Below are positions 2,567 to 39,716 of a DNA stretch of 39,716 bases, one piece after another (position 1 is the first letter of the stretch; every line of letters starts with the position of its first letter). Position numbers and translations under genes: made by a program. The notes below the pieces were generated by a model. It searched no databases and was not told the origin of the DNA. It saw nothing but the letters and a program-made list of their open reading frames with translations. Origin of the DNA: Candidatus Scatosoma sp. (lineage in GTDB: Bacteria; Bacillota; Clostridia; Christensenellales; Borkfalkiaceae); contig JAZRBK010000188.1 in NCBI GenBank assembly GCA_045635025.1, positions 1-39,716 on the forward strand. The letters are read 5' to 3'.

Positions 2567-2641
2567 CACCGCCCCTTGCGCTTCCTCCGCGCTTTGCGTT
2601 ATTTTGCCGCCATCTGCGGCGAGGTTCGCCACCCCTCCTTG

Positions 2642-2711
2642 TGGGCGGTAGCGGTTTCGACCCGCCGACCTCACGGTTGTTGCCGTGCGCGCTTCCCTGC
2701 GCTAACCGCCC
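2642..2711 (-). tRNA. tRNA-like element (70 nt) with a full cloverleaf but non-canonical anticodon and T loops
   Basis: The minus strand reads GGGCGGT TA GCGC AGGGAA GCGC G CACGG CAACAA CCGTG AGGTC GGCGG GTCGAAA CCGCT ACCGCCC A. This gives a 7-bp acceptor stem, a 4-bp D stem, a 5-bp anticodon stem and a 5-bp T stem (one G-U). The anticodon loop has 6 nt (or 8 nt with a 4-bp stem) and contains no U. The T loop starts with G instead of T, and no CCA is encoded. Confidence 0.55.
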
Positions 2712-25137: not shown

Positions 25138-26634
25138 TTATTGAATACCATTGGTAAGTTGTGCCTTTTTGATTTTTTCGTTTTCTTCAAGGCGTTTTAC
25201 TTCGTATGCCTTTTCTTCCTCCGACAGTTCGGGGAAAACAAGGTCAACGAATAATTTTGCGGAAATGCCCCCCTGCGAGTACATATCCATATAAATCTTT
25301 GCATTTTCAAGTGTCGGTGCTTGCGCTTGACTTTTGAAAATGATTTTGACGGGTTTGTGGTCGTAGTAACGCATAACCTTTGCAAGCAACGCGTTAATTG
25401 CAGGTGCAATAAGCGCAATTTGCGTCGGTATCCACGCGGAAGTCTTGTTCTTTTCGTTGAGAATGGCGGCGGCTACTGTTTCCGTAGAGCCGTCCGTCAA
25501 GAACGAGGCGATAGTCGAAGCCGATACATTGAGTTTCGCCGCGACATCGCGGTAAATGTTCTCCTTTTGCACACGAATATCGCTTGCACGCAATTTGAAC
25601 TGAATATCGGTCGGCTTGTCGGTATCCGTGCCGTTCGACCCCACCTTTTGGAAAATCGTTTCGTCAAAGTCCCCAAAGGTTTGCGCGGGGTCGTCCTTGT
25701 TCATCATTTGTTCGGGCATTAAAATTCGACCTTTCGCCACATAGACTTCGTTTTTCTCAAAGCATTTGAGTTGGTCGAACTGTTGACATTCGGACGAAAT
25801 AATATCTCCGATAGGCTGTCCAAACGGCGTGTTGGGCAATTTGGGTATCCCGTCCGTGAATTTGACGGGGAAAAGCCCCACGCTGTCCGCAAAGGGCAAA
25901 TATTGTTCTTTCCCTATCAAAATATCGGGATAGTTTTCCTTAATATGCCGTTTTACCGCGCGAGGTAATTGCTCCCACGGTATGCTTTCTTCCGCGCTTT
26001 TCGGGCGGGACGATACATCGGACTGAATGTTGCCATTTACGCAGTAAATAGCCCTCTTAACGCAAGGGATACCGCGTTCGTTGAAATATCTTTCCTCGCA
26101 AATGCCGTAGTGGTTGTCCTTGTCATTCTCGGTATCGTGGAAAAGGTCAAAGTAAACTCTTGCCCCCTCAACCTTGCCCATAGCATTGAAATCGGCAAAA
26201 AAGGTATCAATGCGGTACGCCGCCGCCCCGATATTGTTGCCGTTTCGTGTCGCCGCCAAAAGAGAAGTGCCGCCTGCCGCGCTATAAAGGAACGCTTTAC
26301 GCAAAATCGACAAGAGATTTGTTTTCTCCGCCCAATCCCTCGCAAACTTCGTGTCATATTCTTCACCCACAAAATCAATGCCGTGGGCGAAAAGAACATT
26401 ACAAAGCCCCTTTGCTACGGACTGCGCCAATTTTTCGGGGACAAGCCCCTTTCCGAAATTGTGATATGTGGGGTCGTACCCGTCGTAAATACGCAACATA
26501 AAGCGCAAATACTGCGAGTAAAACGGCATATAATACGGAGGTGCTAAAAGGTAAAAGGGGTTGTTCTTCAAAAACCCGTAAAACGCCCCTAACTGATTAG
26601 ACTGACCGCTTTGACCGACTTCGATAATAGCCAC
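25138..26634 (-). CDS. Portal protein candidate (498 aa); GTG start
   Basis: The call rests on size and position downstream of the terminase genes. RBS is GGAGAGG 9 nt before the GTG. Confidence 0.6.
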   Translation of the reverse strand: MAIIEVGQSGQSNQLGAFYGFLKNNPFYLLAPPYYMPFYSQYLRFMLRIYDGYDPTYHNFGKGLVPEKLAQSVAKGLCNVLFAHGIDFVGEEYDTKFARDWAEKTNLLSILRKAFLYSAAGGTSLLAATRNGNNIGAAAYRIDTFFADFNAMGKVEGARVYFDLFHDTENDKDNHYGICEERYFNERGIPCVKRAIYCVNGNIQSDVSSRPKSAEESIPWEQLPRAVKRHIKENYPDILIGKEQYLPFADSVGLFPVKFTDGIPKLPNTPFGQPIGDIISSECQQFDQLKCFEKNEVYVAKGRILMPEQMMNKDDPAQTFGDFDETIFQKVGSNGTDTDKPTDIQFKLRASDIRVQKENIYRDVAAKLNVSASTIASFLTDGSTETVAAAILNEKNKTSAWIPTQIALIAPAINALLAKVMRYYDHKPVKIIFKSQAQAPTLENAKIYMDMYSQGGISAKLFVDLVFPELSEEEKAYEVKRLEENEKIKKAQLTNGIQ

Positions 26635-27234: not shown

Positions 27235-28722
27235 TTATTTTATCATTCCCGCCGCGCGCTTTATATCGTCATAATGCGCCTTTCGGGACGGGAAAGATAG
27301 GTTGTAACAGTTGCTATAATACGGGATAAGTCCGTATTCCAATGCGTCGCACAAGTCATTCTTAATCGCGGGGTCAAGTTTCCCGTTCTTATACCTTTGC
27401 GCTTCGATTTCGTGGCGCAGGCGGTGGGTGTTCGGGTTGCCCCTCCAATCATATTTGCCCTCGTTGAGAACGGTAAGGACGCTATAAGCAAAGGCGTTTT
27501 TGATAATGCCCAAGTTTATATCCTTTTTCTTCTTCGTAAAGGCAAAAATGCTGATGTTCTTCCACAATTCCGTGTTTGGGCTTGTGCGCTTTAAGTGCCT
27601 TAACTGCGCGATAAACGGGCTTGCCGCGCCGTCCACCGATAACGCAACTTTGACATAATTATACACCAAGCCGTAATTATTGTCAAGATATAAGAGGAAG
27701 TCGTCAAGCATTTCGCATTGTTCGGTCGGTGCAAGCGTCCTGTTCGTTTCTTCGGGGTCGTCATAGCAAACCTCCAATGTTTGCGCCGTTCCGTCGTCCA
27801 ATATCGCCACAGGGACTATGGCAAAGGTATCGTTTGCCGTCGCGTGGTCGATACCGACAATAATGTTTGTAATATACCGCTTTTCAAGTTCGGGCTTTGT
27901 CTTGTAATGCCTGTTCCTGTCGAATTGCGGGAAAACCACCGAAGATGTGTTGGCGTGAATATCGCCCAAGTAAACCCTCCGATATTCCGTGGGATTCGTC
28001 CTTTGCATATCCAAAATATGCTTTTTCGCCTCGTCATTGAGCAAATGCCAAATATGGTGGCAGTTCGCATAAATAACAAGCCACTCGTCGGACTTCTTCT
28101 TCGTTTCCGCATAGTCCACAAACCAATGCCCCACAGTTTCGTTGTTGCCGACGATAATGATTTTCGCGTGCTTTGACAACTGACGGACAAAGGTGATAAT
28201 GGACTGTTCGATAACATTCTCGTCCTTGTTCTTTTGCGCTTCCTCATAGAGCAACAAGGAAATGGGGTTGAGCAACTTTGTACTCCTCGTCCTTTGACCG
28301 CCCCTGCTATCGGTTATCGGGAAAAGCCTTGTGCAACCCTTTACGCCCCTGCGAAAAACGCCCTCATACGACTTCGGGATATAAAACTCCGCGCGGGGGT
28401 CGTCCTGCGATACTTCAAGCCCGCTGTTAAGCAAGAAAGAGTGAATTTCCTTTATGATACTGTCCTTAATTTCGGTAGAGGTCGCTTGACAAATAACGAC
28501 ATCTTCATCGGGGTAAGCGTTTATCGCGTCCCACCACGCCGCCACCAAAATGGAAGATTTACCGCTTGCACGACCGCTTGAAAGCACGAATTTGTCATAC
28601 TTCTTGTCCGTCCGCGCGTTCGGATAAAGGCTTAATGCGCTCTTATCAACTTTTCCCGTGAATATGGGCGAATAGATTTGAGGAATTATAAGGGTTTCCG
28701 CGTTGGTCTTAAATTCACTCAT
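27235..28722 (-). CDS. terL: Terminase large subunit
   Basis: 495 aa. Walker A-like SSGRASGKSS lies near the N-terminus. The gene follows and overlaps terS. Confidence 0.85.
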   Translation of the reverse strand: MSEFKTNAETLIIPQIYSPIFTGKVDKSALSLYPNARTDKKYDKFVLSSGRASGKSSILVAAWWDAINAYPDEDVVICQATSTEIKDSIIKEIHSFLLNSGLEVSQDDPRAEFYIPKSYEGVFRRGVKGCTRLFPITDSRGGQRTRSTKLLNPISLLLYEEAQKNKDENVIEQSIITFVRQLSKHAKIIIVGNNETVGHWFVDYAETKKKSDEWLVIYANCHHIWHLLNDEAKKHILDMQRTNPTEYRRVYLGDIHANTSSVVFPQFDRNRHYKTKPELEKRYITNIIVGIDHATANDTFAIVPVAILDDGTAQTLEVCYDDPEETNRTLAPTEQCEMLDDFLLYLDNNYGLVYNYVKVALSVDGAASPFIAQLRHLKRTSPNTELWKNISIFAFTKKKKDINLGIIKNAFAYSVLTVLNEGKYDWRGNPNTHRLRHEIEAQRYKNGKLDPAIKNDLCDALEYGLIPYYSNCYNLSFPSRKAHYDDIKRAAGMIK

Positions 28723-29425
28723 CGCTTGTTTCCTCGCTCAAATCCCCCTCAATGATGTTGCGCGGGTCGGCAAGGGCTTCGTGGTTCGCGCAGTCCACGA
28801 TTTTAATGGTTATGCTCCCCGCCTTTACTTCCCCGACCTTCAACATTTCGTTCATTCCGAGTGCCTTATCCAATTCAAAACGCGCGCGCATTTGCGTGGC
28901 GACATCGGTGATTTCCTCTACCTTTTCCCCCGTGAGGTTATGGTCGCGGTCATAAGTCTTTGTTTTTTTAATGGTTTTGGTCTTGCCACTTGCAATATCT
29001 CGGAAGAACTGAATACGCTTTGCCTGCTCCGCGCTCATTTCCGCAAGGTCGAGTTTCGCCCCCGTTCCCTCAATTTCCGCAGGGACAATGGGTGTGGGCA
29101 ACAAGTCCCCCTCCGCTATCTCGTCAATCTTCTTTGAAACCTCGCTTTCGGGGTCATACGCGTCCGTGACATTCTTTTGCCCCCGAAGTGCCGCGACAAA
29201 CTCATCAAAGCGCGCAATATTCTTCGCCAAGTCATACGCGCTCTTTTTCGCGTTCTTGCTGTCAGTATATCCCGCCGCCACATACGCGGCTTTTTTGCTA
29301 AACCCCCCGTTTGCGTAGAACTTCACAAACCTTTGGTGCTTTTCGGGCAAGCGGTCAAAGTCCTCCTGCATTTCGGGCGTGAAGCAAATATACCTCTTAC
29401 CCCTTTCGGTTAACTTCTCGCTCAT
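28715..29425 (-). CDS. terS: Terminase small subunit (Terminase_2-like)
   Basis: RFVKFYANGGFSKKAAYVAAGYTDSKNAKKSAYDLAKN matches the HTH signature of small terminases. The start was trimmed to MSEKL, which has a GAGGTGG RBS. Confidence 0.75.
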   Translation of the reverse strand: MSEKLTERGKRYICFTPEMQEDFDRLPEKHQRFVKFYANGGFSKKAAYVAAGYTDSKNAKKSAYDLAKNIARFDEFVAALRGQKNVTDAYDPESEVSKKIDEIAEGDLLPTPIVPAEIEGTGAKLDLAEMSAEQAKRIQFFRDIASGKTKTIKKTKTYDRDHNLTGEKVEEITDVATQMRARFELDKALGMNEMLKVGEVKAGSITIKIVDCANHEALADPRNIIEGDLSEETSDE

Positions 29426-29981
29426 CGTTCCACCTCTTGAAAATATCCTTACTGCTGAAATACTGCGAAACAACCTTTAAGCACCTGTCCCCTTTCCCAA
29501 AAAGGAACGGATTAAGGCAAAGGCACTTCATTCCGAAATATCTTATTTGCCCCACAATGCCGCTATCGAGCAATTTCCGCCTTATCCTATAAAGCGTGGT
29601 ATGGTCGAACCCCATATCTTGCCCCAAATGCCGCCACACATACGGCTCGTTTATCCTCCATAAAATCCCCGTCCCGTCTTTAAGCCATTGAGCCAAGAAC
29701 GCCCCATAAAAATAAAGGTTCGGGTGATTTCGGAAAACCCCAAACGCTTTACCCACGGGAAAGCACTTCACATAATCCTTCCCATAATAAAACCCATACT
29801 CGCTCAACGGGTTGAGTTTCTTCTTGATAATCAACTGCTCGTCCTTATGCAAAACCTCCGTGCGCGTGATTTCCCCCGTCGCCCCGTCGATTTGCCGAAC
29901 AATGCTCTCCCCCGATTTTACGCTGTCCTCTCCAAAGCGGTAATTCCCCCCGCCTTCCCCGCGCCATTTCCTATAAGTCAC
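29397..29981 (-). CDS. Winged-helix DNA-binding protein, RepL-like; replication initiator or late regulator candidate; GTG start
   Basis: The layout R.ID..TGE......L, then YVKCF, then TTLYRIRRKLLDSGIV, then LCLNPFLFGKGD resembles Firmicute plasmid RepL as I recall it. It is the first gene after the consensus promoter at 30012-30040. Confidence 0.4.
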   Translation of the reverse strand: MTYRKWRGEGGGNYRFGEDSVKSGESIVRQIDGATGEITRTEVLHKDEQLIIKKKLNPLSEYGFYYGKDYVKCFPVGKAFGVFRNHPNLYFYGAFLAQWLKDGTGILWRINEPYVWRHLGQDMGFDHTTLYRIRRKLLDSGIVGQIRYFGMKCLCLNPFLFGKGDRCLKVVSQYFSSKDIFKRWNDEREVNRKG

Positions 29982-32731: not shown

Positions 32732-32892
32732 TACATATTTTTTATACCCGCCATAAAAAATTTTTATGTCCCATATTCCACTTGTTGAATATGCGTTCAC
32801 CTCCTCGCGCGCCCCCGCGAGCGTATTTTTTTATGTTAAGGCACCCCATCTTTGAATTTTCAAAAATCAAAATTCCCCCATTTCCTTGCGAT

Positions 32893-32932
32893 ATAAAAAA
32901 AAGAGAGGGGGGGTCATTTTTTACCCCCCCCC
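32893..32932 (-). terminator. Rho-independent terminator after rtcB
   Basis: A G7/C7-9 stem (32907-32932) is followed by TCTCTTTTTTTT on the minus strand. Confidence 0.7.
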
Positions 32933-32958
32933 TATAAAAAATGGGTTTCTTCCCGCGC

Positions 32959-34161
32959 TTATTCAGCCGCTTTGAAGTTGTAGATAGGTTTCAGCATAGC
33001 CAAGATTTCGACGGTGTCTTTGACAAGTTCTACTATTTCCTCGCTCGGCTTGTAGGCAAACGGTGCTTCGTCGATAGTCGTTTCGTCCACGGTTGTCGAA
33101 TACACACCGCTCATAGTTTCTTTGAAGTCGGCAAGTTGAATTTCTTTTCTTGCCTGCGCCCTGCTCATAGAGCGACCTGCCCCGTGCGGCGCGCTGTTGT
33201 TCCATTCGGCGTTCCCTTTCCCAAAACCCAAAATATACCCGTCGCGCATATTAAGGGGGATAAGGACTTTTTCTCCTTCTTTTGCGCTTATTGCGCCCTT
33301 GCGAACGATACCGTCCTCGCCTATGTAGTTATGCAGGGTAGTAAAACCAACTTCCTCGATGATACCGAACGCAATAGATTGTCTTACTTCACAATACTTT
33401 GAGAGAATGGCGGCGGCTATCATTTTTCTATTATAGTCGGCAAATTTGCGGCAAATCTCAACATCGTGCAAATAGTCTTTCAGCAAGTCGCCCGTAAGGT
33501 AGGACAATTCTTTCGGGACGAGCGGCTTGCTTTTCTTATAGGCTTTTACGGCTTCCTCAATTTCAGTCGTTCTTCCCTCGCTCTTTAAGCGGTCAATAAC
33601 TTCCTGCACGCCGTCAAGTTTCATTTGTTTTTCCGCTTTCTTTTGGTAGATTTCGGCAACCTGCTTTCCGAGATTACGCGACCCCGTATGAATTACAAGG
33701 TATTTAGCGCCCCGCTCGTCAATGTCAAGTTCAATGAAGTGATTACCGCCGCCGAGCGTACCTGCGGAAGCGCAAAGCCATTCCCTGTTGCGGAGTTCGT
33801 CTTTGCATTTCAGCAAATCAATAAGTTGTCCCATACCCACGGACGGCTCTTTTTGCACATTTTTTCCCGACGGGACTTGCTCTTTTACAACCTTGTCAAA
33901 TCGTTCAAGGTCGATTTTGTCCTTTCCGAGCAAAACGCAAAGCATACCGCAATTCAAGTCAACGCCTACGATGTTGGGGCATAACTTGTCCCCAAGCGGC
34001 GCGGTAAAGCCGATTACGCACCCTGCTCCCGCGTGACAATCGGGCATAATGCGGATAGGTGCGTCGCCAAATATTTTCGTGTCGGCAAGCCGTTTTATTT
34101 GTTCAACGGCGGCTTCTTCCACATTGTCCGTAAAGATTTTCACATTGTCAAATTCTTTCAT
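32959..34161 (-). CDS. rtcB: RNA 3'-phosphate/5'-OH ligase RtcB
   Basis: 400 aa with the RtcB hallmark motifs MPDCHAGAGCVIG, GGGNHFIELD, HTGSRNLG, PLNMRDG and NSAPHGAGR. Confidence 0.9.
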   Translation of the reverse strand: MKEFDNVKIFTDNVEEAAVEQIKRLADTKIFGDAPIRIMPDCHAGAGCVIGFTAPLGDKLCPNIVGVDLNCGMLCVLLGKDKIDLERFDKVVKEQVPSGKNVQKEPSVGMGQLIDLLKCKDELRNREWLCASAGTLGGGNHFIELDIDERGAKYLVIHTGSRNLGKQVAEIYQKKAEKQMKLDGVQEVIDRLKSEGRTTEIEEAVKAYKKSKPLVPKELSYLTGDLLKDYLHDVEICRKFADYNRKMIAAAILSKYCEVRQSIAFGIIEEVGFTTLHNYIGEDGIVRKGAISAKEGEKVLIPLNMRDGYILGFGKGNAEWNNSAPHGAGRSMSRAQARKEIQLADFKETMSGVYSTTVDETTIDEAPFAYKPSEEIVELVKDTVEILAMLKPIYNFKAAE

Positions 34162-34164
34162 TTT

Positions 34165-34308
34165 TTATTGCTCCTTTGCGGCTTTGTAAAGTGCCGCACC
34201 AAATTGTATTGCCGTCAGCACGGTCGAAGTAATGGCAACCCAAAGGGGCATTAAGCCCCCCTGCCAAAGTCCCCACGCAAACAATGTAGCGATAAGTAAA
34301 AGTACCAT
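34165..34308 (-). CDS. Small membrane protein (47 aa)
   Basis: ORF trimmed to MVLLLIATLF, which has an AAAGGGGG RBS; two hydrophobic segments. Confidence 0.6.
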   Translation of the reverse strand: MVLLLIATLFAWGLWQGGLMPLWVAITSTVLTAIQFGAALYKAAKEQ

Positions 34309-34322
34309 AGTTTTACCCCCTT

Positions 34323-34580
34323 TCAGTTCGGCAAAGTGCCTTGATACAAAATGCAATTCATACTGCTTACGAGGAGCGTTGTGCCGTCCTTTAAGATAAG
34401 TTGCAACTGTTCCCCCTCATAGTCGTTCCACTTCTTCAACTCAACTGTTTTCCACTCGTCGCCTATCTTCACATAGGCGTGGTCGAATTTCAGTTTCAAG
34501 TCGATGATTTGTTTGTTGCAGGCGCAAAGCACCAACACAAGCAAAACGATGACAAGCATAATGATGATAAGTTTTTTCAT
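34323..34580 (-). CDS. Predicted lipoprotein (85 aa)
   Basis: Signal peptide MKKLIIIMLVIVLLVLVLCAC with a lipobox-like L-C-A-C. Confidence 0.65.
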   Translation of the reverse strand: MKKLIIIMLVIVLLVLVLCACNKQIIDLKLKFDHAYVKIGDEWKTVELKKWNDYEGEQLQLILKDGTTLLVSSMNCILYQGTLPN

Positions 34581-34598
34581 AGTTTTATTCCTCCTTTT

Positions 34599-34811
34599 TT
34601 ACCTTTTCTTTGTATTCCTCGTCATACCGAACCATTTTCTAACGCTTGCTTCGGGACTTTTAAGCATTTTATCTTTTGGCACGATATAAACATAAGTTAC
34701 CTCCCTTCCAAGCCGAGCAAATTCTATATATGCCTCATCGTTAGAATACTGTATCTTTATCCCTCTCGGCGCGCGCAGTTCCCCGCGCATTTTAACCTTT
34801 CTTCCGCTCAT
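34599..34811 (-). CDS. Hypothetical basic protein (70 aa)
   Basis: ORF track; GGGGGAGG RBS. Confidence 0.7.
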   Translation of the reverse strand: MSGRKVKMRGELRAPRGIKIQYSNDEAYIEFARLGREVTYVYIVPKDKMLKSPEASVRKWFGMTRNTKKR

Positions 34812-35139
34812 CTTGCCATTCCTCCCCCGTGAATGGATTTTTACTGCTTGCCTTCAAAAGCCTTATCATAAGCCGCGCCTGTTTTTTCAAATACGGCATA
34901 AGTCTTTTTAAGGCTTCATTTAGCGGCATTTCATAGGGCGCACAATAAACACATTCGTCTTCCCTTACATCTCCAATATAGGTCGATATTTCCCATTCTT
35001 TCCCAACGGGTTTCGTTGGTACAGTTATCAACGCAACAAGCATTTTGGGTTGGGCGGGATAAGGCGTTATTCTTATATGAGCCGACCATTTCCCAACCCA
35101 AACATACTGCTCCTTGATTTCGTATTTCCACTTTTCCAT
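34792..35139 (-). CDS. Hypothetical protein (115 aa)
   Basis: ORF track. Confidence 0.75.
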   Translation of the reverse strand: MEKWKYEIKEQYVWVGKWSAHIRITPYPAQPKMLVALITVPTKPVGKEWEISTYIGDVREDECVYCAPYEMPLNEALKRLMPYLKKQARLMIRLLKASSKNPFTGEEWQDERKKG

Positions 35140-35148
35140 ACGCGCCCC

Positions 35149-35559
35149 TTAAAACGGCAAATCGTCCTCGTCCACTTGAACGGGGGGCATACCCGCCATT
35201 TTCTCCTGCTTGTATTCCTCCGCTCTCGGCATAGTCGGCGTTGCGTTCTCGCCCTTGCTCATAGACAGGAAGCAAACATCGTTCGCGTTGATTTCGGTGA
35301 CGGTCTTTTTCGTGCCGTCATTTCCGTCAAATTCGCGCGTTGTCAACCTGCCCTGCACGATAACCCTGTCACCTTTCTTCAAGTGTTGGTAAACGGCGGC
35401 GGCGGTTTTGCCCCACGCGACCACGGGGAAGAAGTCGGTTTTTTCCCCAATTCCCCCAACCGCAACGCGGAAGTTCGCCTTTTCCGTCCCGCTTTGCAAC
35501 TTTGTGAGTTCGGGGTCTTTCGTCAAACGCCCACTCACCACAATGCTGTTCATATCCAT
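35149..35559 (-). CDS. ssb: Single-stranded DNA-binding protein
   Basis: The OB-fold opening NSIVVSGRLTKDPEL and the acidic C-terminal tip DEDDLPF are present. The start was set at the ATG with an AGGAGG RBS. Confidence 0.9.
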   Translation of the reverse strand: MDMNSIVVSGRLTKDPELTKLQSGTEKANFRVAVGGIGEKTDFFPVVAWGKTAAAVYQHLKKGDRVIVQGRLTTREFDGNDGTKKTVTEINANDVCFLSMSKGENATPTMPRAEEYKQEKMAGMPPVQVDEDDLPF

Positions 35560-35561
35560 AT

Positions 35562-35765
35562 TTACTTTACCTCCTTGCACTTTCTTGTTAAGGGGCGACC
35601 GTGATGTACGGTTGCCTTGTAATGGGCGTAATCCTCCGTGTCATACGCCGTATATCCGTCTTTTGTCTTGTAGGTTTCGATAGCCCCACGCGCTTGCAGG
35701 GCGTAAATCTCGTTTGATTTTGCGCGCCCCTGCGTCTTTCTTACTTCCCTCAATTCGATAATCAT
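35562..35765 (-). CDS. Hypothetical protein (67 aa)
   Basis: ORF track; ATGA overlap with the small upstream ORF. Confidence 0.7.
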   Translation of the reverse strand: MIIELREVRKTQGRAKSNEIYALQARGAIETYKTKDGYTAYDTEDYAHYKATVHHGRPLTRKCKEVK

Positions 35766-35902
35766 TTCTTATTTTCCTCCTCTTGTTCTTTCTTGTCCTT
35801 TATATCCCACCAAATGAGATATACCGCCAATATCAGTATGACAAGGCATATTGCCCCCATTCCACCGATAAAAACTATTGCTTTAATTGTTTGGTCGCTC
35901 AT
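35762..35902 (-). CDS. Small single-pass membrane protein (46 aa, MSDQTIKAIVFIGGMGAICLVILILAVYLIWW...)
   Basis: Hand-translated; GGAGG RBS; ATGA overlap with the downstream gene. Confidence 0.5.
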   Translation of the reverse strand: MSDQTIKAIVFIGGMGAICLVILILAVYLIWWDIKDKKEQEEENKK

Positions 35903-36227
35903 ACGCGCCGCTTACCTCCAACTGCTGTATCGTCCCCATTTCGCTTACGCGCGCCGAGATAATGAATTTTTTGTCGCCCGCCGTCAGCAAGTAAACCTTT
36001 AATGCGTCCGTGCTTCCTTTTATCGCCGTGGTAAATACCATTTGAATTTCCGCGCTCTCCGCGTCAATTTCCCCGATAAGCAGCACCGCCGCGCCCTTGA
36101 CCTCCTGCGTTGTGGTTTCGTCCTTTTTTAATTCGCCGCCCGCAATAAGGCAACAAAGAACAAACGCCCCGATGACCGCCACCATAACGGCGATAATCAC
36201 CACAATTTCAACTTTCCCTTTCTTCAT
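35883..36227 (-). CDS. Secreted or membrane-anchored protein (114 aa)
   Basis: ORF trimmed to MKKGKVEIVVIIAVMVAVIGAFVLCC, which has a GGAGG RBS. Confidence 0.7.
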   Translation of the reverse strand: MKKGKVEIVVIIAVMVAVIGAFVLCCLIAGGELKKDETTTQEVKGAAVLLIGEIDAESAEIQMVFTTAIKGSTDALKVYLLTAGDKKFIISARVSEMGTIQQLEVSGAYERPNN

Positions 36228-36825
36228 CGCCCTTGTCCTCCACATTGATAAAGTCTAAAAACTTCTCCTTTGCCTTTATTTTGCGCTGTATGGGCTTTCC
36301 GAGTATGTCCACGACCAATTTGCCGTCGAACATCTTAAACGCGTCCCTACGGGCATTTTTGTAGCCCTGCCGTAGTCCGTCGCGGTATCCTTTGGTCGGC
36401 GCGTTCGGTGCAATACCGATTTTGCCCTTATCTTGCCCCCCTGCGGTCTTGTTGTATAGTTGATAGCCGCGGGCGGCGTATTGCTTGATAAACTCCCTTT
36501 CCTTTTCGTCAAGCGAGGTTTCGGGGAAGTACCAAGCCGTCACCCTCCACCCCGTCGTGTTTTTCTCGCTCCAAAGTCCGCGCGCCTTTTCTTTCAGCGA
36601 AAGGTCGATATGTTGGTCGTGTCCCATAAGGTGTTGCGCGAGGCGCGTTAGCACTTTCTTTGCTTGCCCCACATAGGCGTATTTCAGCCCCGTTTCCTCC
36701 TCGTAGCGCGTAAAGGCGTAAATTCCGCTTTCCTCAAAAAGGGACGCTTCGGGAAACGCCTCGACCAACCGCTTTTTATTCGCCGCCAAGACAGCCATTC
36801 GTTGCTTCCAAGTCATCGGCTTCAT
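36208..36825 (-). CDS. GIY-YIG nuclease-domain protein (homing-endonuclease-like)
   Basis: SGIYAF...YAYVGQAKKVLTRLAQH...EKEREFIKQYAARGYQLYNKTAGG fits the GIY / YVG / R / H / E / N spacing. The start is at MKPMTW with an AAGGAGGG RBS. Confidence 0.7.
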   Translation of the reverse strand: MKPMTWKQRMAVLAANKKRLVEAFPEASLFEESGIYAFTRYEEETGLKYAYVGQAKKVLTRLAQHLMGHDQHIDLSLKEKARGLWSEKNTTGWRVTAWYFPETSLDEKEREFIKQYAARGYQLYNKTAGGQDKGKIGIAPNAPTKGYRDGLRQGYKNARRDAFKMFDGKLVVDILGKPIQRKIKAKEKFLDFINVEDKGDEERES

Positions 36826-37216
36826 TCTTGCCCTCCTTCTTCTTGTCAAAGTAGCAACTCACAAGATAATCGTTGTCCTTTTCGTTGAACTTGAATTGCC
36901 CGTTGGCGCGGATTTTCTTCTCCATTTTGCGCGCTTTCCTCAAAAGGCTAAACGCCGACGCATAGGTTACGCCGCACGCTTTAAGGCACTCCTGCTTGTC
37001 GTTGCACATATACAAAGCGGTGGAAGTGGAGATAATGCCCTCGTATTCCGAGCCGTAGTTGATTTCGTGTGTCACCAAACGCATTTCGCGTTCGGACAAG
37101 CCGTGTTCCTGCGCGTACACCGAGCGTTTGACAGCGTTCTCGCGCCCCAAGTGGTTGCTTTCAAGGTCGGCGTAAATCTCCGCGACCAATTCCTTTGTCA
37201 CCCTCTTATTCCTCAT
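36776..37216 (-). CDS. Hypothetical protein (146 aa)
   Basis: ORF track. Confidence 0.75.
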   Translation of the reverse strand: MRNKRVTKELVAEIYADLESNHLGRENAVKRSVYAQEHGLSEREMRLVTHEINYGSEYEGIISTSTALYMCNDKQECLKACGVTYASAFSLLRKARKMEKKIRANGQFKFNEKDNDYLVSCYFDKKKEGKNEADDLEATNGCLGGE

Positions 37217-37418
37217 TTTTCTTGTCCCCCTTGTACTTCTTCACGATGTAGTTGTCGTAAACTTTTTCCGCCTCAAAATAGTAGTAGCACCTGTGCTTTT
37301 CGCTTATGTCCGCCATAGGGCATTTCGCGCAGTCCAAGTCCCCGTTCGGAAAGTGCGGGCACTCATTCGGGCGGATAACCTTGACGATTTCGGTGATGTC
37401 CTTATTCCTCTCCTCCAT
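37206..37418 (-). CDS. Small Cys-rich protein (70 aa)
   Basis: ORF track; contains CPHF...C..CP...C. Confidence 0.7.
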   Translation of the reverse strand: MEERNKDITEIVKVIRPNECPHFPNGDLDCAKCPMADISEKHRCYYYFEAEKVYDNYIVKKYKGDKKNEE

Positions 37419-37422
37419 TTTC

Positions 37423-37893
37423 TTATTCCCCCTTTATAAAATCGTCAACCTTTGCTATGTTCGTTAAACTGTCCGTCAGCAAGCGGATAGACGAACCCAA
37501 TTTTACACTCCTTTCCAAGAGGTCATCGCCCGTCTTGTAGGCAATATCAAAAACCTCTTGTGCCGTAGCGGTTGCGCCTTTATCCCCCCTTTCTTTTAGT
37601 GCTTTTCGCATTTCCGAATACGCGCGAGTAATCTTTTTGGAATATCGCAAACGCTTATGTACGCATTTCCGAACTTCGTCTTCCAACCTTTGAATGTCGT
37701 CATCGTTCTTTATGCAAATCGCTTCATCGCGCGCTACCGTCCCGTATAGTAAACAGTAAATTTTGATGTCAAAAAGCGCATATCTTTCGCGCATAAGTTT
37801 TTCCCGCGTTTTGTATAGCGAAAAATAGTTCCTTTTAAGTGCAGGGTCTTTTATGTCTTCGCCAATGCTTTTGATAACATCAATCTTCGGCAT
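37423..37893 (-). CDS. Hypothetical helical protein (about 156 aa); start at 37893 or 37899
   Basis: The ORF was trimmed because AAGGGGG lies 9 nt before the ATG at 37893. Confidence 0.7.
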   Translation of the reverse strand: MPKIDVIKSIGEDIKDPALKRNYFSLYKTREKLMRERYALFDIKIYCLLYGTVARDEAICIKNDDDIQRLEDEVRKCVHKRLRYSKKITRAYSEMRKALKERGDKGATATAQEVFDIAYKTGDDLLERSVKLGSSIRLLTDSLTNIAKVDDFIKGE

Positions 37894-38836
37894 TTTCATC
37901 TTCCCCCTTGATTTTGATTTCAACGGCGGGCTTTACTTTCGTCACCTTTGAATATTCGCCGTAAACTTGCGGCAATTCTCGGCGCAATTTCGTACTGTCA
38001 ACTGTCACGCGGTCATAGCCCGCTCGGTAGGTCACGCGCACCTTTTCCGTTTCGTAGGAATAAATGCCCTGCCTTTCCATTTCAGCCATAAGAGCGGCGC
38101 GGCACTTTTCGGCGGTTTCCTTTGCCGTCTTTGCCGCCCTCTCGATTTCAACGAGCGCGGTTTCCGCCGCTTCCAAGCGCAAGCGCAAGTCGTTCTCCAC
38201 CACAAGCGCGGGGCGCATATACTTTTCCCCCTTGAACTCGGCGGTGAAAAGTTTTTCGATTTCCGTGTCGGGAATTTTCTCCAATTCCTTGACGGTCAAC
38301 TTCCCGCTTTTCGGGTCGAAGTGCGTGCAAAGAAATTTTTTTGCGCCTTTCCAAACAAACTTCCTATCGTTCACAATGCGCCCATTCATTTGCCGCGCCA
38401 TATAGTCGCCAATGCTCACCTGCCACGCCACATACTCCCTGTTTGCGCTCGCGGTGTTCTTGTGGTCGTCAATAACCCTTTCCCCGCTTTTCAGCACGCC
38501 GAGCAAGTCAATCGTCCCTGCAACAATCATTCCGCCCCAATCCAAAGTCACCATAACTTCGGCGCGCGCCTCTTTAAGGTTTTCGTCCGACCACTTTGCG
38601 AACTCCAAGCCCTGCGGCGTTTCGGGGATATATTCCTTGTCGCGAAAGTTGATATAATTCTCAATGTCCGCGTGGACGATTTTCCCGTTTGAGCGGCTTT
38701 CCTCCAACTTCTCCTCGCTTACAAAGGAAAGGTTGGGGGCAAGTCCGTGCTTTTTCAGCAACTCCGTAATAGAGATACTTGCGATGTCGCCATTTACAAA
38801 ATAGGAATGGGTCTTTGCGTCAAAGTCTATACGCAT
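37880..38836 (-). CDS. PD-(D/E)XK family exonuclease (recombination partner of the SSAP)
   Basis: The N-terminus reads THSYFVNG...SITELLKK. The sequence GKIVHADIE ... GTIDLLGV...VIDDHKNT fits the D...(D/E)xK nuclease motif arrangement. It is TAATG-coupled to the SSAP gene. Confidence 0.65.
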   Translation of the reverse strand: MRIDFDAKTHSYFVNGDIASISITELLKKHGLAPNLSFVSEEKLEESRSNGKIVHADIENYINFRDKEYIPETPQGLEFAKWSDENLKEARAEVMVTLDWGGMIVAGTIDLLGVLKSGERVIDDHKNTASANREYVAWQVSIGDYMARQMNGRIVNDRKFVWKGAKKFLCTHFDPKSGKLTVKELEKIPDTEIEKLFTAEFKGEKYMRPALVVENDLRLRLEAAETALVEIERAAKTAKETAEKCRAALMAEMERQGIYSYETEKVRVTYRAGYDRVTVDSTKLRRELPQVYGEYSKVTKVKPAVEIKIKGEDENAED

Positions 38837-39450
38837 TATTTTTGTCCCTCGCTGTCATTAGCCAACTGTTCAGCCTGCGCCGCTTTTTTTTGGTCGTAGG
38901 CTTTCTTTTGGTCGATGATGTATTGCGCTTGCTCCTGCGTTAAGTCCTCCAACTTATCAACGCCGAACTTGCGGAGCGTGTTTTCCACCTTTACGCCGAG
39001 CGCGGTAAATTCCTTAACCTGCGCCTCCGTGATTTTCGGTGCGGGAGCGTTAGCCTCCGCTTCGGGCAAGTCCTCCCCTGCGTAAACATACAAGCCAAGT
39101 CCGTGGCGAGCGCAAGCCTTTGTCAGCGACCTTTGAATTGCCTTGTTCACATCAAAGGAATTTACCTCCTCCAAAGGAATTGACCTGTTCTTGCTGTTCA
39201 TAACGGGCAAATACTCGATATGCTCCAAGCCCTCGATAGTAACGCCCGTCTTAACCCAACAAGTCTTGCCGTCCGTGTGATAGTTCCAACCCTGCGCGTT
39301 CTCGTAAATCGTGTAAAACGCAGTCGGATAGCGTTTCTTAACTTCCGCCCACGCCCACGCCCAAGAAAGATAGGTCAAACCGCCCTTGTCCTCCGTGTGT
39401 TCGTTCACATTGATATTGTTAAGCGTTTCAAATACCGAAACTTTTTCCAT
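38836..39450 (-). CDS. Rad52-superfamily single-strand annealing protein (DUF1071/Sak3-like), allele B
   Basis: 204 aa with GLTYLSWAWAWAEVKKRYP. It lies upstream of the exonuclease and close to ssb. Confidence 0.7.
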   Translation of the reverse strand: MEKVSVFETLNNINVNEHTEDKGGLTYLSWAWAWAEVKKRYPTAFYTIYENAQGWNYHTDGKTCWVKTGVTIEGLEHIEYLPVMNSKNRSIPLEEVNSFDVNKAIQRSLTKACARHGLGLYVYAGEDLPEAEANAPAPKITEAQVKEFTALGVKVENTLRKFGVDKLEDLTQEQAQYIIDQKKAYDQKKAAQAEQLANDSEGQK

Positions 39451-39493
39451 TAAAATACCCCCTTGTGGGGCTTTCCGCCCCCTTGATACCTCT

Positions 39494-39522
39494 ATTGTAT
39501 CATACTTTCACCGCATTGTCAA
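39494..39522 (-). promoter_or_regulatory. Promoter: TTGACA, 17-nt spacer, TACAAT (copy of the promoter at 1249..1277)
   Basis: On the minus strand, TTGACA is at 39522-39517 and TACAAT at 39499-39494. The UTR hairpin lies at 39467-39481. Confidence 0.7.
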
Positions 39523-39549
39523 CAATTTGCATAAAATTTTTTCAACTTT

Positions 39550-39585
39550 TTTTCTAAAAACAATAACCCCCTGTAAGGGGGTTAT
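39550..39585 (-). terminator. Rho-independent terminator (copy of 1305..1340)
   Basis: The stem ATAACCCCCT/AGGGGGTTAT spans 39563-39585. Confidence 0.6.
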
Positions 39586-39586
39586 G

Positions 39587-39716
39587 TCAGCGTCCTTTAT
39601 TCTTGTTAATCGTCACCACTCGCGCTATTCCGTGCGGGTGGATTTTTTCCTCGCGCGCCTCCTGCGGCAACAGCGTACAATACTGTGAGTAGGTTATCCG
39701 TTCGGTTGGTTGGTAC
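39587..39716 (-). CDS. 3' end of a homolog of gene 1342..1737; 5' end lies outside the window
   Basis: The hand-translated C-terminus ...EEKIHPHGIARVVTINKNKGR* compares with ...EEKIHPHGIARVVTINKNKVR* in the left copy. Confidence 0.75.
   Translation of the reverse strand, partial: YQPTERITYSQYCTLLPQEAREEKIHPHGIARVVTINKNKGR

Follow-up and report, generated by a model that had tools for sequence, protein, structure and literature searches.

The last gene of the early operon in a 39,716-nucleotide phage genome encodes what is, by its sequence and its modeled structure, a bona fide RtcB RNA ligase with an intact active site. This stretch of DNA (hereafter, the window) spans positions 1-39,716 of the forward strand of contig JAZRBK010000188.1 in the Candidatus Scatosoma sp. 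assembly GCA_045635025.1; all of its genes lie on the - strand, and they include those for terminase, portal, Sak, and SSB. The rtcB gene (32959..34161, -) begins with ATG and encodes a 400-amino-acid protein predicted to ligate 3'-phosphate or 2',3'-cyclic-phosphate RNA ends to 5'-OH ends. The protein is a further member, about 50% identical to the deposited phage proteins, of a large and already annotated phage family. That it follows the GTP/Mn2+ enzymology of RtcB ligases is very likely and, with clearly less certainty, its biological role is probably to reseal cut tRNA and so sustain translation against host RNases. RNA repair against host ribonucleases had been put forward in a sequence-only reading of this DNA, and we also judge it the most plausible role; the tRNA-repair counter-defense hypothesis is not new and is already in the literature (PMC7824862, PMC8008677). 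What is worth keeping from this locus is the single-enzyme context, the exchange of the gene as a cassette, the recurrent rtcB/tRNA-Gln(UUG) neighborhood, and an orphan tRNA-Val-like RNA.

Active site, fold, and type of the RtcB protein

The protein scored 198.7 bits for the Pfam RtcB family PF01139 (E value, 2.7e-58), which has a gathering score of 27, and over its full length (residues 5-400) it matched the PHROG 1075 family, "tRNA splicing ligase" (E value, 1.1e-120). Active-site residues were mapped by aligning a profile of 30 homologues to the Pyrococcus horikoshii enzyme (PhoRtcB; 1uc2_A, native numbering). The sequence-only reading had reported a full RtcB motif set, and all four of its motifs are present, namely, DCHAGAG (residues 41-47), GGGNHF (137-142), HTGSR (158-162), and HGAGR (326-330). 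Two more essential motifs, which that reading had left unnamed, are also present: VDLNCG (67-72), with a metal-binding Asp and the bridging Cys, and LHNY (276-279), with a metal-binding His. On the - strand, the N-terminal active-site motifs DCHAGAG and VDLNCG are encoded within 33946..34041, GGGNHF and HTGSR within 33676..33753, LHNY at 33325..33336, and HGAGR at 33172..33186.

The roles of the equivalent PhoRtcB residues, as given in PMC9745838, cover the metal ligands, the nucleophile, and the guanine and phosphate contacts. H158 and H277 correspond to the M1 ligands His234 and His329, D68 and H141 to the M2 ligands Asp95 and His203, and C71 to Cys98, which bridges M1 and M2. The phosphate contacts Asn202 and Asn330 are represented by N140 and N278, and the guanine contacts Glu206 and Lys480 by E144 and K397. 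H326 aligns with His404, the guanylylated nucleophile, while D41 and H43 (D65 and H67 in PhoRtcB) and R330 within HGAGR (Arg408) are also conserved. No active-site residue is substituted in the alignment to PhoRtcB, and all of the mapped catalytic residues are invariant across the 30 homologues. Likewise, Asp75, Cys78, His168, His185, His281, and His337 of Escherichia coli RtcB are all matched in the window protein, with H326 equivalent to His337.

The AlphaFold2 model of the protein reached a pLDDT of 91.1 and a pTM of 0.89. When it was compared with the PDB using Foldseek, the significant matches were RtcB structures only (E values of 1e-22 to 2e-15; TMq, 0.60 to 0.73), the next match having an E value of 0.37. 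Enzymatic competence is strongly predicted from the sequence, and we infer that the protein is active as an RNA ligase.

The type of RtcB was considered by comparison with the two E. coli enzymes. RtcB1 repairs tRNA, whereas the PrfH-coupled RtcB2 repairs only 16S rRNA cut in the decoding center and not tRNA, with PrfH needed to expose the damaged site (PMC9304027). The window protein is closer to RtcB1 (28% identity, 129 bits) than to RtcB2 (23% identity, 64 bits). The best full-length NCBIfam models were those of the short RtcB2 type, PRK09588 and TIGR03073, yet the scores lie far under both cutoffs (104.5 versus 407 and 82.3 versus 271.8, respectively), placing the protein outside these families. 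No prfH was found adjacent to rtcB, the neighbors of which are a 63-amino-acid open reading frame (ORF) upstream and a terminator downstream. An RtcB2/PrfH-type assignment, suggested by the NCBIfam match names and by some GenBank annotations, is ruled out by the cutoffs, the identity, and the lack of prfH. With these identities and sub-cutoff scores and no prfH, the protein is therefore an orthologue of neither RtcB1 nor RtcB2 and, by sequence, belongs to a third, very large clade common to phages and gut bacteria.

Partner proteins were sought in 43 non-structural ORFs on both sides of the structural block, using Pfam and/or PHROGs (6 ORFs with PHROGs only and 17 with Pfam only). None of the scanned ORFs matched the RtcA, archease, Pnkp, Rnl, PrfH, or TROVE families, bearing out the earlier remark that RtcB has no RtcA, archease, or Pnkp partner here. 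There being no RtcA or RtcR match among these ORFs, the gene is not part of an rtcBA-rtcR operon. Nor does it resemble the archease-dependent type: no archease was found in the scanned ORFs, and the protein is of the short form, with ~400 amino acids compared with 480-505.

Cassette exchange, tRNA neighbors, and operon context

RtcB homologues are encoded in 682 deposited phage genomes, at 46-51% identity over 97-100% of the length (the best is 51%, and all are below 60%). These phages include those of Mycobacterium, Bacillus, Listeria, and Brevibacterium, and the usual annotation is tRNA-splicing ligase or RtcB. A megablast search of half of the window against deposited phages gave no match, and the window phage therefore has no annotated close relative among them. 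In three deposited sequences (MT835481.1, OL964058.1, and LC785692.1), the tblastn match to rtcB was split into two pieces spanning ~2.0-2.1 kb, suggesting an intein- or intron-interrupted gene; NCBIfam has models for intein-containing RtcB, and the rtcB of the window is uninterrupted.

Among metagenome proteins, three come close to the window protein (90, 89, and 87% identity), and the best of the others is 66% identical. The 89% relative belongs to a syntenic sister phage (L001-L006), in which rtcB sits in the same place and the terminator and ~166 nucleotides downstream are conserved. The 90% relative (L007/L008) is found in an unrelated backbone with ERF, NinB, DnaC-like, and SPP1-type portal genes, as the last gene before the packaging genes, and the 87% relative (L180) is in a third backbone, in the same place and with the same terminator. 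Thus, rtcB is the last early gene in four phage backbones, those of the window, L001, L007, and L180. The nucleotide identity of rtcB to its copies in these phages is 88-92%, compared with 65-75% for the other shared genes or no relationship at all, which marks rtcB as a cassette that is exchanged between phages and placed preferentially at the early/late boundary. The protein likewise shows 87-90% amino acid identity where its neighbors show 40-70%.

In a neighbor-joining tree, the window protein and its sisters were joined first by a protein from a 152-kb phage-like contig (L010, 67%) and next by a chromosomal copy beside a Macro-domain gene (L009, 59%) and a copy in an integrated element with HicB (L011, 57%). 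Genes for NAMPT, NAD synthase, NADAR, and isochorismatase lie upstream of rtcB in L010, whereas in L009, a Firmicutes chromosome, the Macro-domain gene is directly downstream. HicB, or HicA/HicB, is encoded just upstream of rtcB in L011 and L182, and in L181 a TROVE/Ro gene lies 1.5 kb from rtcB, the start of which overlaps a metallophosphoesterase gene. The HicAB genes and the metallophosphoesterase and Ro/TROVE genes beside these relatives are again RNA-damage themes. Together with the Macro-domain and NAD-salvage genes, they make up a set of neighbors of the conflict type, which speaks for a repair role. Among the GTDB species-representative genomes, none of the best 80 loci exceeded 55% identity. 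Placing the gene against host rtcB, as the sequence-only reading had suggested to tell a recent capture from a phage clade, thus gave no support to recent capture from a sequenced host, the nearest relative after the sisters being that of the phage-like contig.

To place the clade relative to tRNA genes, the 10 kb on each side of rtcB were surveyed in 80 IMG/VR loci (L012-L091) and in the best 80 cellular loci from GTDB species representatives. At least one tRNA gene was present in 62/80 viral loci and in 8/80 cellular loci, with totals of 199 and 9 tRNA genes, respectively. The 199 viral tRNA genes are nearly all co-oriented with rtcB (196), and most of them (166) lie upstream of it, peaking at a distance of 2-6 kb. 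tRNA-Gln(UUG) occurs in 46 viral loci, Met(CAU) in 41, and Thr(UGU) in 20, and Ser and Tyr tRNAs are also frequent. When RtcB was clustered at 80% identity, 9/12 viral clusters had tRNAs and 7 had Gln(UUG); at 70% identity, the counts were 7/8 and 5/8. The looser association of this RtcB clade with ordinary phage tRNA genes is therefore real, and it is in line with a view already in print, in which RNA ligases of the RtcB or ATP-grasp type reseal tRNAs cut by host RNases and phage tRNAs are thereby "supplemented" (PMC7824862). Resealing of cut tRNAs has likewise been suggested for the tRNA ligases of gut phages (PMC8008677). As a separate observation, several tRNAs of the rtcB-linked arrays have unusual anticodons, namely, Asn-ATT, Cys-ACA, Ile-TAT, and "SeC"-TCA, the last a possible opal suppressor.

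Within the window, the rtcB gene is preceded by a Shine-Dalgarno sequence, AAGGAG (34171-34176, -), 9 nucleotides before the ATG. The 63-amino-acid ORF directly upstream has its stop at 34165 and no family match. Downstream, an intrinsic terminator (32894..32933, -) begins 25 nucleotides past the rtcB stop codon and ends the early operon. It consists of a G9/C7 stem with an 8-nucleotide loop and a U-tract, in which an 11-bp stem with 8 G-C pairs (AGGGGGGGGG...CCCCCCCTCT) is followed by CTTTTTTTT (32933-32904, -); the hairpin is present in the minimum-free-energy fold and is conserved in two related phage lineages, L001 and L180. The "G7/C9" terminator described earlier is this same hairpin read on the + strand. 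The terminator is part of a conserved segment (32793..32958, -) that also holds a GGGGGTGCCTTA motif and a second GC hairpin (CGCGCGAGGGGGCGCG-like) and that has counterparts at 11204-11367 in L001 and 11207-11390 in L180; the blastn match to L001, at 88%, extends 166 nucleotides beyond the rtcB stop codon. Conserved in three phage lineages, this segment of ~166 nucleotides might serve as a late promoter, or otherwise in regulation, where the early genes meet the late ones.

A putative strong early-operon promoter (39494..39522, -; TTGACA-17-TACAAT with an upstream TG, 11/12 consensus matches) lies just upstream of the Sak gene, ~6.6 kb from the rtcB terminator. Over this span, that strand has one strong terminator hairpin (11 bp), which follows rtcB; the span also contains four terminator-like sites that are weaker (5-7-bp stems). 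No separate promoter serves rtcB, the last cistron. With a putative promoter upstream of Sak and a strong terminator only after rtcB, it is fair to say, as the sequence-only reading did, that rtcB closes the early operon. From gene content, we infer that rtcB is expressed early.

The remainder of the early operon, on the upstream side of rtcB (34165..39450, -), encodes a Sak single-strand annealing protein (38836-39450), a RecE-like exonuclease (37880-38836), a GIY-YIG protein (36208-36849; Pfam E value, 4.9e-06; PHROG 19106 E value, 7e-50), SSB (35149-35580), and small ORFs annotated without function, including those between SSB and rtcB (34165-35139). Sak, the exonuclease, and SSB were assigned from family scans and from synteny with L001. 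The GIY-YIG gene, placed between the exonuclease and SSB genes, may encode a homing endonuclease or a repair nuclease. The window also encodes the small terminase (28715-29473, -), the large terminase (27235-28722, -), and the portal (25138-26634, -), with tail genes after the portal. Scans of non-structural ORFs of the window with Pfam and PHROGs found no integrase or repressor.

One region is present at both ends of the window, in diverged copies (38854-39418 versus 1-565 at 91% identity; 39467-39716 versus 1222-1471 at 94%). It follows that the genome is circularly permuted and that its unit measures ~38.85 kb; synteny with the sister phage confirmed the wrap-around. Because the ends overlap, the promoter upstream of Sak has a diverged duplicate at 1249-1277, and each promoter copy is preceded by a terminator-like hairpin, one of them at 1340-1318. 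In the left copy, a 656-nucleotide insertion between the early promoter and Sak holds an ORF with pentapeptide repeats/DUF5758 (607-1197); the ends look like a circular genome assembled over two strain variants, one with an extra accessory gene.

The tRNA-like element and the role of RtcB

The sequence-only reading had joined rtcB to an atypical tRNA-like RNA as a two-part strategy against ribonucleases. This element (2641..2711, -) is a tRNA-Val-like cloverleaf, reported by ARAGORN as tRNA-??? with a 2-nucleotide anticodon, and it has no evident tie to rtcB function. It folds as a perfect cloverleaf with all four stems fully paired (minimum free energy, -35.4 kcal/mol; z, -2.9), coincides with a GC spike (62-66% versus 35-48% around it), and lies behind a match to an extended -10 promoter, TGgTATAAT. 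Its closest resemblance is to tRNA-Val(UAC), at 54/71 positions, with the acceptor stem, the T arm, A35, C36, and A73 kept; the anticodon loop, however, has 6 nucleotides (CAACAA versus CUUACAA in tRNA-Val), and the D loop is 4 nucleotides shorter. Rfam RF00005 gave no match at the gathering threshold, nor at an E value of ≤10 on 801 or 111 nucleotides, while control tRNAs of L001 scored 62 and 74 bits against the Rfam tRNA model. With no covariance-model match and a loop of 6 rather than 7 nucleotides, the element falls outside the tRNA family, and no Rfam match to tmRNA or Y RNA was found for it at any threshold. A structured leader of ~150 nucleotides with a GC content of 62-66% (2567-2727, -) has the element as its 5' end and precedes an ORF of 96-108 amino acids.

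Searches for relatives of the element in IMG/VR with a 28-mer and an 18-mer gave 0 matches. A 20-mer gave 4 matches in JGI metagenomes, all in unrelated high-GC sequence with neither a tRNA call nor similarity to the window, and no relatives of the neighboring 170-amino-acid ORF were found in IMG/VR. As the genome is circular, the element lies ~7.3 kb upstream of rtcB and not 30 kb away. Between the two are three ORFs, the terminator-like hairpin at 1340-1318, and the early promoter copy at 1277-1249, this hairpin and promoter placing the element in a different transcription unit from rtcB. Canonical genes for tRNA-Gln(UUG) and tRNA-Thr(UGU) are found in a variable accessory region of the sister phages (RtcB, 89%), which have no such element. 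These tRNAs are at 4005-4301 in L001 and also occur in L003, L005, and L006; the corresponding region of the window holds the Val-like element along with small ORFs. The sister phages also carry a DNA methylase in the variable early region, which the window lacks. No tRNA was called in the 10 kb upstream of rtcB in L007/L008 (90%) or L180 (87%). The expected co-occurrence of rtcB and the tRNA-like locus was thus not seen, as the element is absent where RtcB is 87-90% identical. Being in a separate unit, absent from the sisters, and without relatives, the element has no comparative support as a partner of rtcB, and it appears from its sequence to be an orphan tRNA-Val-like RNA and a separate curiosity.

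Anticodon nucleases, HEPN proteins, and toxin RNases leave 2',3'-cyclic-phosphate or 3'-phosphate and 5'-OH ends. In the reading we favor, rtcB would be transcribed with the recombination and replication genes from the promoter upstream of Sak and, as the last early cistron, RtcB would be made before the late genes need heavy translation. The enzyme would act alone and depend on GTP and Mn2+. It would form His326-GMP and RNA(3')pp(5')G as intermediates on the way to sealing a 3'-phosphate or 2',3'-cyclic-phosphate RNA end to a 5'-OH end. Its most likely substrates are host tRNAs (in relatives, also tRNAs encoded by the phage), and other RNAs of translation may be included, after cleavage by metal-independent ribonucleases of the host, among them those named above. 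Resealing would keep translation going during infection, for late gene expression, and RtcB would be a one-enzyme equivalent of the T4 Pnkp and Rnl1 pathway. The gene itself would be a mobile accessory cassette swapped among gut phages and inserted at the early/late boundary.

Several points weigh against this reading. A few related IMG/VR lineages contribute most of the tRNA association, which refers to ±10 kb only. The window has no canonical tRNA gene by ARAGORN and no healing or accessory enzyme in the scanned ORFs. Because rtcB lies within a DNA recombination module, guilt by association points equally to a DNA role, and because the clade is common in cellular genomes without tRNA neighbors, its function need not be phage specific. 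Phage RtcB is widely annotated, but in the literature searched we found neither an experimental study of any phage RtcB nor a demonstration that one counters defense.

The pairing of RtcB with the tRNA-like RNA, in which a decoy or nuclease-resistant tRNA would accompany the repair enzyme or RtcB would mature or ligate the odd RNA, is very improbable and ranks last among the alternatives considered. It can draw on a real GC-rich cloverleaf (z, -2.9) that resembles tRNA-Val and keeps A35, C36, and A73, that is on the same strand as rtcB and behind an extended -10 promoter, and that occupies the accessory slot where the sister phages carry tRNAs; tRNA arrays are, moreover, general in RtcB-bearing phages, and another tRNA-like gene with a 6-nucleotide loop is found inside such an array in L031 and L034. 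Against it stand the separate transcription unit ~7.3 kb away, the absence of the element from all close rtcB relatives examined, and the lack of any Rfam tRNA or Y RNA match or of any homologue in the collections searched that could give covariation or co-occurrence support. Maturation by RtcB, which the sequence-only reading had offered as an alternative, is unnecessary because the DNA encodes a continuous cloverleaf and no ligation step is needed. A wider version, in which the rtcB cassette and co-oriented upstream tRNAs (mostly Gln(UUG), with Met, Thr, Ser, or Tyr) would form a conserved gut-phage module against anticodon nucleases, and in which the tRNA partner would here be replaced by a tRNA-Val-derived RNA with a 6-nucleotide loop, acting as a nuclease-resistant decoy or sponge or as bait religated by RtcB, is very unlikely. 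The genes in L031 (7082-7148) and L034 (8073-8139) are of a second kind, tRNA-???(ga).

Repair of rRNA in the manner of RtcB2, on 16S rRNA cut in the decoding center by colicin-E3-like, CdiA-like, or other ribotoxins, is established for RtcB2 itself (PMC9304027) and would fit the best NCBIfam models, PRK09588 and TIGR03073, and the "release factor H-coupled" annotation of some phage homologues. We nevertheless regard it as improbable, with scores far under the curated cutoffs (104 versus 407 and 82 versus 272), an identity to E. coli RtcB2 (23%) below that to RtcB1, no PrfH or release-factor-like gene in the 43 scanned ORFs, and a genomic association that is with tRNA genes. A role in DNA metabolism, with RtcB sealing or capping DNA 3'-phosphate ends alongside the Sak/exonuclease/SSB module, would explain the predicted cotranscription with Sak, the RecE-like exonuclease, the GIY-YIG nuclease, and SSB, and RtcB can use 5'-OH DNA strands in vitro, according to PMC8051266. 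However, in other phages the clade adjoins tRNA arrays, HicAB, Ro/TROVE, or NAD-salvage genes and not recombination genes, in L007 rtcB follows a different recombination/replication module (ERF, NinB, and a DnaC/IstB-like ATPase), and the literature drawn on cites no biological DNA role of any RtcB; such a role is highly unlikely. There is also a small chance, similar to that of rRNA repair, that rtcB is a passenger or moron cassette with little lytic role, kept for a benefit to the lysogen (protection from RNase toxins) or merely acquired recently. The clear horizontal movement between unrelated phages and the abundance of the clade in cellular genomes and integrated elements speak for this, whereas the lack of an integrase or repressor in the window, the position as last early-operon cistron with no promoter of its own, the strong conservation (87-90% amino acid identity versus 40-70% for neighbors), and the intact catalytic residues speak against it.

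Comparison with known systems

A tRNA-like Y RNA accompanies RtcB in bacterial Rsr(Ro)-Y RNA-RtcBA loci, such as rsr-yrlBA-rtcBA of Salmonella. These loci are a precedent for a tRNA-mimicking RNA near rtcB, but the window has no TROVE protein among its scanned ORFs and no Rfam match to Y RNA or YrlA, and its tRNA-like element keeps a full anticodon arm and belongs to a separate transcription unit. E. coli RtcB works without archease, and RtcB1, from the rtcBA-rtcR operon, resembles the window protein in its full-length alignment and expected chemistry. In contrast to that system, rtcB in the window is accompanied by neither the RtcA cyclase nor RtcR and lies in a phage early operon instead of a sigma54 stress operon, and its product forms a separate clade from RtcB1. 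The E. coli RtcB2-PrfH system shares with the window protein the short bacterial form and weak matches to the same NCBIfam models.

A functional parallel is that of T4 Pnkp and Rnl1 against PrrC, cited in PMC8008677 and PMC7824862, which follows the same logic as that proposed here, a phage enzyme undoing a host tRNA cut so that late translation continues. The proteins and the chemistry are unrelated: T4 heals the ends with a kinase/phosphatase and seals them with an ATP-dependent 5'-P/3'-OH ligase, whereas RtcB joins 3'-P and 5'-OH ends directly with GTP, and neither Pnkp nor Rnl was found among the scanned non-structural ORFs of the window. The protein itself belongs to the phage RtcB family PHROG 1075, annotated in Bacillus, Listeria, Staphylococcus, Clostridioides, Bacteroides, and Mycobacterium phages, whose members are, like the window protein, stand-alone and ~390-400 amino acids long. 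An exchanged cassette downstream of co-oriented, Gln(UUG)-rich tRNA arrays is a testable hint to the host RNAs attacked in gut bacteria. Most named carriers of PHROG 1075 are large myoviruses of 130-165 kb. In comparison, the ~39-kb window phage would be a simpler genetic system, in which one rtcB stands alone, cleanly placed in the early operon, and no other repair enzyme competes with it.

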